Shown piece by piece: positions 11,696 to 13,786 of a DNA stretch of 64,000 nucleotides; the stretch's first letter is position 1; each line of letters opens with the position of its first letter. The position numbers and the translations under genes were made by a program. The notes beneath the pieces are model-generated. The model did no database searches. It had not been told where the DNA came from and saw nothing but the letters and a program-made list of their open reading frames with translations. The stretch is from positions 1 to 64,000 of the forward strand of contig JAZDHK010000029.1 in assembly GCA_043806035.1 (NCBI GenBank), given 5' to 3'. Origin of the DNA: an archaeon. GTDB taxonomy: Archaea; Nanobdellota; Nanobdellia; Woesearchaeales; UBA9642.

Positions 11696-12357
11696 GGTGT
11701 GAACGATTTTGCCGCTCCAATAAACGCACGCATCTTCTGCTCGTCCTTCCTGTCTTTTTTCAGGTATGCTGCGGAGTACGTGCTGACTCCTGTCGAGACA
11801 TCGACGCCGTGCGGCTGTGTCTTGCGCATGGCCTCTGCCACATTCTCTGGAGTGAGCCCTCCTGCAATGAACACGGGTCTTTTTGAAAGATCAATGAGTT
11901 TTTTGCATAGATCCCAGTTATTGGTAATTCCTGTTCCTCCAACATATCCTTGGAAGCGCGTGTCAAGAAGAATGAAATCGCAGAACGGCTCATACCCTTG
12001 CAATGAGGCGATGCTCTTTTTTCCATCGACGACAACCGTCTTTATGATCTTCTTCTTCGTTCGTGACCGCAATTGCCTGAGCTTCTCAACACCGATATCT
12101 TCAGACACCTGTATGCCTGTCGCATTGACGTACTCTGTCAAGGCAAGGATGTCCTCGATTTCAGTTAAGTGCGTGACGACATAACTATCGACGTTCTTCG
12201 GAAATGTTTTTATGATCTCCCTGACCGTTTGGGCATGCGGCTCGACCTCAACAGGCAGCACCTTGCCCCCCATGACGAAACCGATCGCTGTCGCACCACA
12301 GGCGATCGCTTGCATAGCATCAATGCCGTTGCTTATCCCGCAAATTTTTATCAACAT
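11692..12357 (-). CDS. trpF: Phosphoribosylanthranilate isomerase (TrpF)-like protein
   Basis: IKICGI, GATAIGFV, LLDT..GGTG, IAGGLTPENV and GVDVSTGV motifs. No other trp genes in the window. Confidence 0.88.
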   Translation of the reverse strand: MLIKICGISNGIDAMQAIACGATAIGFVMGGKVLPVEVEPHAQTVREIIKTFPKNVDSYVVTHLTEIEDILALTEYVNATGIQVSEDIGVEKLRQLRSRTKKKIIKTVVVDGKKSIASLQGYEPFCDFILLDTRFQGYVGGTGITNNWDLCKKLIDLSKRPVFIAGGLTPENVAEAMRKTQPHGVDVSTGVSTYSAAYLKKDRKDEQKMRAFIGAAKSFTP

Positions 12358-12953
12358 AGTCGTTCACCTCGCAGTATGTCAATAAGTTCATGAGCGCAAT
12401 CTCTTGGTTTCTTTCCAGAAGTATCGAGCACGTATTTCGGGCAAGTGAGCTCAGCGAATATCTCTCTGTACTTTGCCTCTCTTCGCACTTGTCGTTCAGG
12501 ATGCAGCACCAGGCTTGAACGGTAGTCGTCTTCCACGAACTTCGACAATCGCTGTGTCACTTCGCCGATGTCCGCAGTGACGTGTACGTAGACATCTGGT
12601 TTTAAGAACAACGGATCTAACATTTTCCTGAATAGTCTATTGTGTGTCCATTCGCAATCAGGGAAGAATGAATCGATGGTCTGCACATACCTGTCCTGCA
12701 CCACCGTCTTCCCTTTTCGTAATTGCGGTGTTATGCGCAGGGCAGTTTGTACTGCCAAATCAAGATAGTACGTGCCCGAGTGTGGGTATGTATTGATGAT
12801 GTACTGCCAGAGAGAATCCTTGACAAAACCTTTGCTGTACACGATATCCGTATCCGGCTTGTCGAGTATGTGCGTGGCCTCTTTCACGGTTGTCGTCTTG
12901 CCGACACCACTTATGCCCTCAATAATCACGAATGTTCCTTTCATGCATATCAT
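12351..12953 (-). CDS. Thymidylate-kinase-like nucleotide kinase
   Basis: IIEGISGVGKTT P-loop, VVQDRY (DR motif) and KPDVYVHV. Confidence 0.8.
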   Translation of the reverse strand: MICMKGTFVIIEGISGVGKTTTVKEATHILDKPDTDIVYSKGFVKDSLWQYIINTYPHSGTYYLDLAVQTALRITPQLRKGKTVVQDRYVQTIDSFFPDCEWTHNRLFRKMLDPLFLKPDVYVHVTADIGEVTQRLSKFVEDDYRSSLVLHPERQVRREAKYREIFAELTCPKYVLDTSGKKPRDCAHELIDILRGERLC

Positions 12954-13786
12954 TTGTGCACGTACGTTTGACGCAGCACCCTCTCATTTTTAGGCTGATT
13001 GAATCCTTTGCTGATCAGTTCTGATGGAAGAGACAGCACCTGTCCCAGATTTTCCAGACCTGCTTTTGTCGGCTGCAGCAAATTGCCGATTGATGATATG
13101 ATCCTGCAGCAGTCGTCACGTTCGTGAGCAATCGCAGAAACGATGTTGATGTCAGGATGTGCACGCCTACATTGTGCGACAACGTCCAGGTATTCTCGGG
13201 CAGACACTGAGAATTCATCCGCACAAGGTGTGCTGTGGCCTCCTGCTGTGAAATGAGATAATTTCCAAGAAACAACCTTGCCTTTCAGCAGGTTGCCTAT
13301 CTCGGGCAGGTTCTGCATGTTCTTTCTTGTCACAATTGTGTTTATCTTGATGCCGATATGCGGATAGGTGCTCGTGATCAATGCTAGCAGGTCCAGCACC
13401 AGCTGCTGATGGTTCTTGCTCAACGGTGTCGGACGCAAGGCGTTGTGTATCGTCGCATCTGCCGAATCCAGAGGAAGCCCGATAAAATCGACAAGAGGAG
13501 CAATGCCTGGCAGCTGCTGCTCTACTAAAATACCGTTCGTCGTCAGGATGGTGATGATGCCTAGCTGTTTTGCATGCGTGAGAAGCTCGACAATGTCCTG
13601 TCTCATCAGCGGCTCTCCGCCCGTGAAGTTGATAGCTTCCAGACCCTGTTCTTTGAACAGTGCAATGCACTTTTTTGCGTCAGCAGTGCTCATCTCCTGA
13701 GATTGCGTTCTCCAGTCAGAGAAGCAAAATGGGCAGTTCATGTTGCATCTGCCCGAAACCTCGAACGTGATGTATCTGATGCTCAT
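12950..13786 (-). CDS. Radical SAM enzyme, viperin-like
   Basis: CNMNCPFC, INFTGGEP, TTNG, LPLDS, IKINTIV and SWKL. The motif order resembles viperin/RSAD2, and there is no SPASM cysteine cluster. Confidence 0.8.
   Translation of the reverse strand: MSIRYITFEVSGRCNMNCPFCFSDWRTQSQEMSTADAKKCIALFKEQGLEAINFTGGEPLMRQDIVELLTHAKQLGIITILTTNGILVEQQLPGIAPLVDFIGLPLDSADATIHNALRPTPLSKNHQQLVLDLLALITSTYPHIGIKINTIVTRKNMQNLPEIGNLLKGKVVSWKLSHFTAGGHSTPCADEFSVSAREYLDVVAQCRRAHPDINIVSAIAHERDDCCRIISSIGNLLQPTKAGLENLGQVLSLPSELISKGFNQPKNERVLRQTYVHK

Follow-up and report, generated by a model that had tools for sequence, protein, structure and literature searches.

A radical SAM enzyme with a predicted viperin fold in a conserved archaeal and bacterial operon that may remodel purine nucleotides

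The first 64,000 nucleotides of contig JAZDHK010000029.1 from a woesearchaeal genome (GenBank assembly GCA_043806035.1; hereafter the window) contain an operon of nine minus-strand genes that overlap their neighbours by 4–8 nt and are translationally coupled. Among them are the gene for a radical S-adenosylmethionine (SAM) enzyme of 278 amino acids (positions 12950–13786) and the gene for a 200-amino-acid protein of the thymidylate kinase (TMK) superfamily that resembles nucleoside monophosphate (NMP) kinases (12351–12953). The two reading frames overlap by 4 nt; a preliminary description of this DNA, which noted the overlap, took the pair for a viperin-like enzyme coupled to a nucleotide kinase and did not recognize the operon around them. 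The other genes encode a NUDIX hydrolase, a GTP-cyclohydrolase-II-like enzyme, a TrpF-like enzyme, two phosphoribosyltransferases (PRTases), a cyclase-family hydrolase and a HAD phosphatase, and a gene for an NrtR-family regulator is transcribed divergently from them.

In Pfam, the radical SAM protein matched PF04055 (68.2 bits) and PF13353 alone. Its translation contains the motifs on which the likeness to viperin was originally based, namely C14-x3-C18-x2-C21-F22, INFTGGEP at residues 52–59, TNG at 83–85, LDS at 106–108, KINTIV at 147–152 and WK at 174–175. The best of 18,950 NCBIfam models was viperin_w_prok (NF038283; E 5.2e-31, 107.9 bits), followed by NirJ2 (78.4 bits) and MoaA (74.3 bits); the PADLOC models of prokaryotic viperins (pVips) scored 109 and 106.9 bits, and the best sequence match in the PDB was mouse viperin (51.5 bits), ahead of BlsE (47 bits) and MoaA (40.9 bits). 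Judged by these sequence scores, the resemblance to viperin is far beyond chance. An AlphaFold2 model built from 24 family sequences reached a mean predicted local distance difference test score (pLDDT) of 94.1, and its best Foldseek match was again mouse viperin (6q2p_A; template modelling (TM) scores 0.85/0.81 over 284 columns), with a root-mean-square deviation of 2.6 Å and 21% identity over the full length, compared with TM scores of 0.68 for BlsE and 0.70 for MoaA. The available text of bioRxiv 10.1101/2023.09.13.557418 describes a viperin fold in which a C-terminal extension closes a partial (beta-alpha)6 barrel, and the predicted structure of the radical SAM protein has both the viperin-type barrel and this extension. 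The sequence scores, together with the full-length predicted fold, bear out its proposed status as a divergent viperin relative.

A word-indexed search returned 27 close relatives (P0002–P0028) with 43–58% identity, several of them labelled Woesearchaeota; beyond these, scores dropped from 215 bits to 115. When 1.84 billion representatives were searched exhaustively, 25,522 matches had E <= 0.001, but just 19 reached E <= 1e-30. C14, C18 and C21, as well as G56, G57, E58 and P59, are invariant across 24 family members. Within the wider viperin-like radiation, P0135 carries a fused cytidylyltransferase-like domain, P0136 a cupin domain and P0124 a 290-residue N-terminal region without a family; these fusions hint at further nucleotide-linked roles.

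The protein lies below both curated viperin cut-offs, scoring 107.9 against 180 bits for NF038283 and 50.4 against 450 bits for TIGR04278, and its match to viperin_w_prok spans residues 6–159 only. No viperin cut-off was reached by any of 60 scanned representatives, a subset of the 116 listed that have at most 600 amino acids, the best being P0205 with 144 bits. Bona fide pVips, scoring 290–304 bits, accounted for four of 35 open reading frames (ORFs) scanned from 75 non-operon genome loci (L007, L023, L026 and L065). We included these four in a tree of 87 rows (IQ-TREE, LG+G4, short search) that also held 14 family proteins, four operon-locus proteins, the 57 nearest representatives, two SPASM enzymes and six MoaA proteins as outgroup, with support given solely by the Shimodaira–Hasegawa-like approximate likelihood ratio test (SH-aLRT). 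The operon radical SAM family formed one clade of 23 rows (SH-aLRT 99), the four pVips a separate clade (SH-aLRT 99), and the MoaA outgroup had a support of 100. In this phylogeny with pVips and MoaA, of the kind that had been proposed as a check, the protein thus stands outside the pVip clade in a clade of its own; the backbone among the many viperin-like clades of ~280 amino acids was not resolved, and a sister relation between the operon family and the pVips is neither shown nor excluded by it.

To locate the differences from viperin, columns invariant in the four true pVips, used to represent conserved substrate-side residues such as VNxH, the beta-8 loop region and RGGxYxW, were compared with 18 aligned family rows. 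Of 71 such columns, 20 are conserved in 90% or more of the family rows, and these are distributed very unevenly: the radical SAM core retains 19 of its 48 columns, the C-terminal part 1 of its 23. The pVip motifs VNxH in the N-terminal part and SYxMxDPxGRFxD and RGGxYxW in the C-terminal part are absent from the family alignment. Likewise, in the alignment to chain 6q2p_A, T7-F8-E9 takes the place of the N-Y-H of viperin, the loss of which had been recognized from the outset. Residues were mapped through this alignment, in which the chain index plus 44 gives the mouse numbering, and four pocket residues of mouse viperin proved to be retained without variation throughout the family: R194 (R118 of the radical SAM protein), K220 (K147), N222 (N149) and K247 (K175). 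Three of these, K220, N222 and K247, were placed in the mouse viperin pocket by docking, according to the accessible part of PMC11970327. Because only one of the 23 pVip-invariant C-terminal columns is kept, a different substrate, initially suggested as a mere possibility, is likely. The viperin fold in combination with this mixed set of residues indicates that the radical SAM protein belongs to a separate family on the viperin scaffold, different on the substrate side, and that it probably still grips a phosphorylated ligand.

These data bear directly on the idea that the enzyme is a divergent pVip which defends against viruses by producing, with the adjacent kinase, a chain-terminating 3'-deoxy-3',4'-didehydro (ddh) nucleotide. 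No curated family and no solved fold is closer than viperin, with which the protein shares the CxxxCxxC core, the GGEP, TNG, KINT and WK motifs, the four pocket residues and the predicted fold along its full length, C-terminal extension included. An NMP-kinase-like gene overlaps the radical SAM gene, as reported for some viperins in the available text of bioRxiv 10.1101/2023.09.13.557418. The kinase has a weak match to VakA (22.9 bits), and a sparse distribution across domains is typical of defence genes. However, both curated cut-offs were missed, the protein forms a clade apart from the four true pVips and lacks their N- and C-terminal motifs, and no family member was found in the viral contigs searched. 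The operon proteins are highly conserved and not fast-evolving. The genomic setting is that of a ten-gene metabolic operon, in which the radical SAM gene is embedded among nine coupled genes of anabolic type with a metabolite-type regulator, and the flanking genes are of the housekeeping kind (CDC48, GatD, GatE, TruD and adenylate kinase, plus a DEAD helicase). Ten other genes scanned with PADLOC gave no strong match and revealed no defence system nearby, the best scores being 30.3 bits for the kinase (with PDC-M51B), 29.1 and 21.7 bits for the two NUDIX-domain proteins and 17.7 bits for the HAD protein. We consider a chain-terminator-producing antiviral viperin very unlikely here, and neither the assignment as an antiviral viperin making ddh nucleoside triphosphates nor the defence reading of the locus was sustained. 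More generally, viperin matches that stay below threshold should not be called defence systems on account of a neighbouring kinase gene.

The kinase itself contains a P-loop (GISGVGKT) and a DRY motif. Its earlier classification as TMK-like holds at the level of the superfamily and not at that of the family models, since it scores below the cut-offs of PF02223 (23.4 against 27 bits) and TIGR00041 (40.3 against 83.25 bits). Its gene directly follows the radical SAM gene in the window and in seven other loci (L001, L113, L115, L116, L117, L121 and L123). The presumed coupling of the two genes breaks down elsewhere, with L111 and L118 having the kinase gene directly after the cyclohydrolase gene and no radical SAM gene, and in six bacterial loci a different TMK-superfamily kinase lies at the far end of the operon. 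The archaeal and bacterial operon kinases share 28% identity over 130 residues. For the kinase, the radical SAM gene is no fixed partner.

The operon begins with the gene for the NUDIX hydrolase (148 amino acids, 14907–15353, minus strand like all operon genes; PF00293, 59.2 bits), which is followed by that for the GTP-cyclohydrolase-II-like protein, a predicted zinc enzyme of 375 amino acids from a GTG start (13783–14910), or 372 amino acids from an alternative ATG at 14901. This protein matches PF00925 with 25.6 bits against a cut-off of 23.3, over profile positions 105–158 only, and falls far under the cut-offs of the NCBIfam RibA models. Its motif ESACSPSFLFGSQRCNC aligns with the zinc motif of RibBA, and C147, C158 and C160 are invariant among 30 homologues. 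We found 260 homologues, of which the 120 listed show 52–73% identity, and remoter relatives with 36–42% identity occupy other contexts. Outside the operon context, L154 (468–2414) and L159 (1031–2962) encode such remoter cyclohydrolase-like proteins (~37% identity) with a fused class I SAM methyltransferase domain.

Downstream of the radical SAM and kinase genes lies the gene for the TrpF-like enzyme, which has the phosphoribosylanthranilate isomerase fold (221 amino acids, 11692–12357; PF00697, 68.2 bits) and whose best NCBIfam model for that isomerase gave 132.3 bits against a cut-off of 215. The next gene (10367–11695) encodes a protein of 442 amino acids with a C-terminal helical domain, which matched no Pfam or NCBIfam family and gave a sub-threshold score of 16.5 bits with PRTase-CE; its 32 homologues are all unnamed or labelled hypothetical. 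It contains the type I PRTase signature FDEYIDSGTT, in which D200, E201, Y202 and G206 are invariant, and its AlphaFold2 model (mean pLDDT 92.6) weakly matched HGPRT and PyrR in Foldseek (E 5e-3). Signature and model together suggest that this divergent protein founds a new type I PRTase family. It is followed by a cyclase-family metal hydrolase resembling kynurenine formamidase (9750–10370; PF04199, 73.2 bits), which scored 110.1 bits with the arylformamidase model TIGR03035 (cut-off 223) and shows 64–67% identity between archaeal and bacterial loci. Because its homologues align from residues 36–46 of the listed ORF onward, M43 is the likely start, and from this start the gene overlaps the upstream gene by 4 nt. 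The last two genes encode an adenine phosphoribosyltransferase (APRT)-like type I PRTase of 180 amino acids (9215–9757), which passes the cut-off of NF002636 (157.2 against 125 bits) and fails that of TIGR01090 (154.6 against 185.85 bits), and a HAD-IA phosphatase of 205 amino acids (8601–9218; PF00702, 54.9 bits) with weak NCBIfam nucleotidase matches.

The regulator gene (15499–16116, plus strand) encodes a Nudix-like domain (29.9 bits) joined to an NrtR winged helix (NrtR_WHD, 68.7 bits). Because the protein scores 106.9 bits with the equivalog NF050029 against a cut-off of 400, we regard it as a member of the NrtR family and not as the characterised NrtR. The 146-bp intergenic region between regulator and operon contains six ACGT cores within ~95 bp (15376–15470), arranged as overlapping imperfect palindromes such as ACGTTTTTTTAACG and CGTTAAGATGACGT, and in L001 the same intergenic position contains TGTTACGT...ACGTAACA. 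These ACGT-rich palindromes may be an operator of the regulator; an inverted-repeat search of the regulator–operon intergenic regions of five loci yielded no defensible common motif.

Among 80 kept loci from one-genome-per-species contigs, the operon was present in five (L001–L005). L001 belongs to an archaeal metagenome-assembled genome and has all ten genes as well as a gene for phosphoribosyl pyrophosphate (PRPP) synthetase at the head of the operon; L002, L003 and L005 come from metagenome-assembled genomes of Clostridia, and L004 is labelled Muribaculaceae. A larger set of 57 loci was assembled from 51 metagenome loci found by a cyclohydrolase-family scan, the five genome loci and the window, and genes were classified with jackhmmer profiles at E <= 1e-8. 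Because many loci stop at contig edges, the gene counts in this set are lower bounds. Cyclohydrolase and TrpF-like genes occur together in 31 of the 57 loci, with the radical SAM gene between them in 24 of these 31; all six core genes are present in 21 loci, the window included, and the regulator gene was found beside the cyclohydrolase gene in 27.

Two gene orders were observed. The archaeal order is regulator, in some cases Prs, NUDIX, cyclohydrolase, radical SAM, kinase, TrpF-like, new PRTase, cyclase, APRT-like and HAD, and the bacterial order is regulator, cyclohydrolase, radical SAM, TrpF-like, new PRTase, cyclase, APRT-like and HAD. In 10 bacterial loci, a different NUDIX gene follows the HAD gene, and the archaeal and bacterial operon NUDIX proteins barely align. 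Because such dissimilar members of the same superfamilies sit elsewhere in the bacterial operons, the pathway seems to need both the kinase and the NUDIX activity. A class III aminotransferase gene is inserted between the TrpF-like and PRTase genes in L117, L118 and L139.

Several operon genes are also found fused, which links the proposed steps to one another. Cyclohydrolase–radical SAM fusions are represented by P0308 (644 amino acids) and a 658-amino-acid frame in G315, and a fusion to a SLOG domain by P0360. NUDIX–cyclohydrolase fusions comprise seven listed proteins of 512–531 amino acids, P0310 and P0320 among them, identified from precomputed NUDIX domains of which two were checked with Pfam; such fusions also occur in L114 and L115. 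In L114 (8560–12886) and L119 (8989–10648), a separate SLOG cluster-4 gene follows the regulator and cyclohydrolase genes, the latter either NUDIX-fused or plain, and the rest of the operon is absent; the next gene in L114 encodes a fusion of a glycosyltransferase with a phosphomevalonate-kinase-like domain.

We favour the interpretation that the radical SAM protein is a viperin-fold enzyme of a distinct, undescribed family which acts in a conserved, NrtR-regulated, PRPP-dependent operon for purine-nucleotide remodelling and is not a stand-alone antiviral viperin, and we give this interpretation a probability of roughly 0.55. That the operon builds a purine-derived compound is more likely than that the radical SAM protein acts as an antiviral viperin on its own. 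By analogy with known systems, the logic of the pathway would be pteridine-like or deazapurine-like. The APRT-like enzyme and the TMK-like kinase could first charge a purine base to the di- or triphosphate. The radical SAM enzyme would then bind this phosphorylated substrate, or a ring-opened derivative, through its retained viperin residues, and a 5'-deoxyadenosyl radical would modify the ribose or ribose-derived side chain, the most likely chemistry being a viperin-type dehydration to a deoxy/keto form. After removal of pyrophosphate by the NUDIX enzyme, the GTP-cyclohydrolase-II-like enzyme would open the imidazole ring, the formamidase-like cyclase would remove the formyl group left by this opening, and an Amadori rearrangement by the TrpF-like enzyme could reclose the ring as a pteridine-type heterocycle. 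Finally, the new PRTase would attach ribose phosphate from PRPP, and the HAD phosphatase would trim the product. In operons with an aminotransferase, this enzyme could aminate the keto group arising from the radical SAM step.

The closest precedent for the central steps is the bypass of FolE and FolQ in Chlamydia (Adams et al. 2014, PMC4161248), where, as far as the available text goes, enzymes of the GTP cyclohydrolase II (GCH-II) and TrpF families act in succession to convert GTP into a dihydropterin monophosphate. RibA makes 2,5-diamino-6-ribosylamino-pyrimidinone 5'-phosphate, and the promiscuous TrpF closes this product to dihydroneopterin monophosphate by an Amadori rearrangement (PMC4161248, same portion). 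There, too, TrpF is described as an orphan with regard to tryptophan synthesis. The operon differs in that its enzymes are divergent and dedicated and are joined by formamidase-like and radical SAM enzymes, two PRTases, NUDIX, kinase and HAD, and in that no folate pathway lies downstream, FolP being detected in none of the five operon genomes.

A second parallel is offered by 7-deazapurine clusters such as that for tubercidin, which in the accessible part of Liu et al. (2018, PMC6112128) comprises a GTP-derived heterocycle, a radical SAM step, a PRTase that re-attaches ribose phosphate from PRPP, and subsequent tailoring by Nudix or phosphatase enzymes. The present enzymes are non-orthologous to these, with a GCH-II-like enzyme in place of GCH-I and a viperin-fold enzyme in place of a QueE-type radical SAM enzyme, and none of the five operon genomes yielded QueD/PTPS. 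The QueE fold differs from that of viperin. MoaA (GTP 3',8-cyclase) likewise is a radical SAM enzyme that acts on the ribose of a purine nucleoside triphosphate and is followed by a ring-rearranging enzyme, as the cyclohydrolase might be here. Unlike MoaA, the radical SAM protein had no Mob_synth_C domain or motif for a second Fe-S cluster detectable with Pfam, it scored 74.3 bits with TIGR02666 against a cut-off of 284.05, and the MoaA rows fell as the outgroup in the tree.

The same gene content can be read as the logic of the upper histidine pathway (HisG, HisE, HisI, HisA) rebuilt from non-orthologous enzymes, with one product tailored by the radical SAM enzyme. The PRTase would then join PRPP to ATP, the NUDIX enzyme would correspond to HisE, the cyclohydrolase, opening a six-membered ring, to HisI and the TrpF-like enzyme to HisA, and the formamidase-like enzyme would cleave a formimino link to give 5-aminoimidazole-4-carboxamide ribonucleotide and an aminosugar phosphate. 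PRPP synthetase, PRTase, pyrophosphohydrolase, cyclohydrolase and Amadori isomerase are all represented as activity classes and in the same order, and the operon includes an APRT-like gene. HisIE is the pyrophosphohydrolase–cyclohydrolase fusion of the histidine pathway, and the NUDIX–cyclohydrolase fusions mirror it. To our knowledge, histidine synthesis has no radical SAM step, and the enzyme would be without an obvious need in such a scheme. Furthermore, all protein families differ from those of the histidine pathway, and the GCH-II superfamily is known for opening the imidazole ring. TrpF and HisA share their type of rearrangement, according to the available text of PMC4161248, and it is the Chlamydia case described there, the sole experimental precedent for pairing the GCH-II and TrpF families, that yields a pterin. 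We therefore regard a histidine-type pathway as an outside chance.

Several observations weigh against purine-nucleotide remodelling as formulated above. The match of the cyclohydrolase to PF00925 is marginal and confined to the C-terminal part. Four positions of the radical SAM protein are altered relative to viperin (N77 to T7, H79 to E9, K120 to A51 and R245 to S173), and the viperin residues concerned may bind the triphosphate, contacting the terminal phosphates of CTP. Seven of the 31 operons contain no radical SAM gene (L118, L120, L122, L124, L138, L139 and L145), so that its step is optional or is encoded elsewhere in these organisms. None of the five operon genomes, which are G000, the genome of the window (93.7% complete), and G401–G404, for which completeness is not given, yielded FolE, PTPS/QueD, FolP or lumazine synthase, and hence no known pterin consumer is present. 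The sparse occurrence of the operon and its 50–70% identity across domains fit horizontally moved accessory functions, defence included. Lastly, the order of the steps, with the putative substrate and product, is a guess.

The sparse distribution was seen with the cyclohydrolase as marker, which was found in 2 of the 401 genomes sampled from the window's phylum, in none of 11 other genomes of the window's family, and among bacteria in 1 of 201 genomes of the order of G402 and 1 of 201 of the family of G403, each count other than that for the window's family including the query genome. Together with the identity of 50–70% between archaea and bacteria, this distribution indicates an accessory operon that has spread horizontally. 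In the phylum sample, no viperin exceeded its cut-off in any of the 401 genomes, and 61 sub-threshold matches were recorded, a tally that includes the unpublished genomes G396 and G244. An origin from phages was considered and rejected: viral contigs contained no relative of the cyclohydrolase family and no member of the radical SAM family, and the remote radical SAM matches at ten loci comprised eight at 23–29% identity over longer stretches and three at 40–50% over 40–56 residues only.

With FolE, PTPS/QueD, FolP and lumazine synthase undetected in the five operon genomes, only one of which has a stated completeness, we also discarded the possibility that the operon feeds folate, queuosine or riboflavin synthesis. 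A role of the TrpF-like gene in tryptophan synthesis was rejected as well, TrpC (indole-3-glycerol-phosphate synthase) over the cut-off being found in 0 of 5 operon genomes, and the gene is an orphan. Canonical RibA (224 bits) occurs in G000 alone of the five; this canonical GTP cyclohydrolase II (contig C2, 1394–1885, outside the window) is itself an orphan, with no lumazine synthase detected in the genome.

The regulator invites a further interpretation, in which the operon recycles nicotinamide adenine dinucleotide (NAD) or ADP-ribose, or makes an NAD-related compound, under an NrtR-like repressor that senses ADP-ribose, with pyridine or ADP-ribose nucleotides as substrates of the NUDIX, PRTase, kinase and HAD enzymes. 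An NrtR-family regulator adjoins the operon in the 27 of 57 loci mentioned above, PRPP synthetase and NUDIX genes are typical members of NrtR regulons, and a gene for glutamine-dependent NAD synthase lies beside the operon in five bacterial loci (L002 scanned with Pfam, the others clustered by BLASTP). NadA was not shown by four of the five operon genomes, and nicotinate phosphoribosyltransferase (NAPRTase) was found in three. Against this, NrtR-family members regulate other pathways too, the genome of the window contains genes for NadA (301.7 bits) and a NAPRTase-like protein, and the cyclohydrolase-like, TrpF-like, formamidase-like and radical SAM enzymes would be left without a role. We give such a function little credence. 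A novel de novo synthesis of NAD, suggested by the regulator and the neighbouring NadE, was set aside because of the same NadA and NAPRTase-like genes and is not the interpretation we prefer.

A bolder version of purine-nucleotide remodelling would make the operon a unit, spread horizontally and gated by its NrtR-family regulator, for the manufacture of a novel purine-derived nucleotide or nucleoside of pteridine-like or deazapurine-like type. A ddh-type radical dehydration by the viperin-fold enzyme would serve as a biosynthetic step in it, the product might be an inducible antimetabolite or antiviral, and the non-orthologous enzymes would be shared by DPANN archaea, candidate-phyla bacteria and reduced gut bacteria. 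We think this unlikely, if somewhat less so than the three alternatives discussed above.

A full-text literature search, which did not cover the supplementary tables of bioRxiv 10.1101/2023.09.13.557418, turned up no account of the operon, of the family of the 442-amino-acid PRTase or of a comparable viperin-like enzyme in metabolism. The viperin scaffold may be present here in a new, metabolic setting, and the whole operon may be a new pathway. Viperin-type radical chemistry has so far been known as an antiviral end reaction, and the same fold would here carry out one step of a pathway. If true, this would give the large uncharacterised radiation of ~280-amino-acid viperin-like enzymes its first metabolic function, point to a new purine-derived metabolite and its biosynthetic logic in very small genomes (DPANN archaea and reduced gut bacteria), and mean that the RibA and TrpF "patchwork" of Chlamydia also exists as a dedicated, selected pathway.

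Other features of the window were noted in passing. A ZIP zinc transporter is encoded at a distance of a few genes from the operon (19737–20531, plus strand), and in L004 one follows the operon directly (6229–6975); with two operon enzymes being predicted zinc enzymes, this proximity may be a coincidence. A 360-amino-acid ORF without a Pfam, NCBIfam or PADLOC match (17531–18613, minus strand) is flanked by a leucyl-aminopeptidase-like gene and the gene for a lysylphosphatidylglycerol-synthase-like membrane protein. On the plus strand, adjacent ORFs at 29963–37503 encode proteins of 931 amino acids (MopE-like metal-binding, PKD and CarboxypepD_reg domains) and 1582 amino acids (a HerA-like DUF87 ATPase), the latter followed by three ORFs without a Pfam family (37500–39955). 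Finally, a single plus-strand ORF of 7054 amino acids (40947–62111) with Laminin_G_3, MG2, DUF2341, CARDB and bacterial Ig-like domains encodes a giant surface protein of a kind frequent in DPANN archaea.

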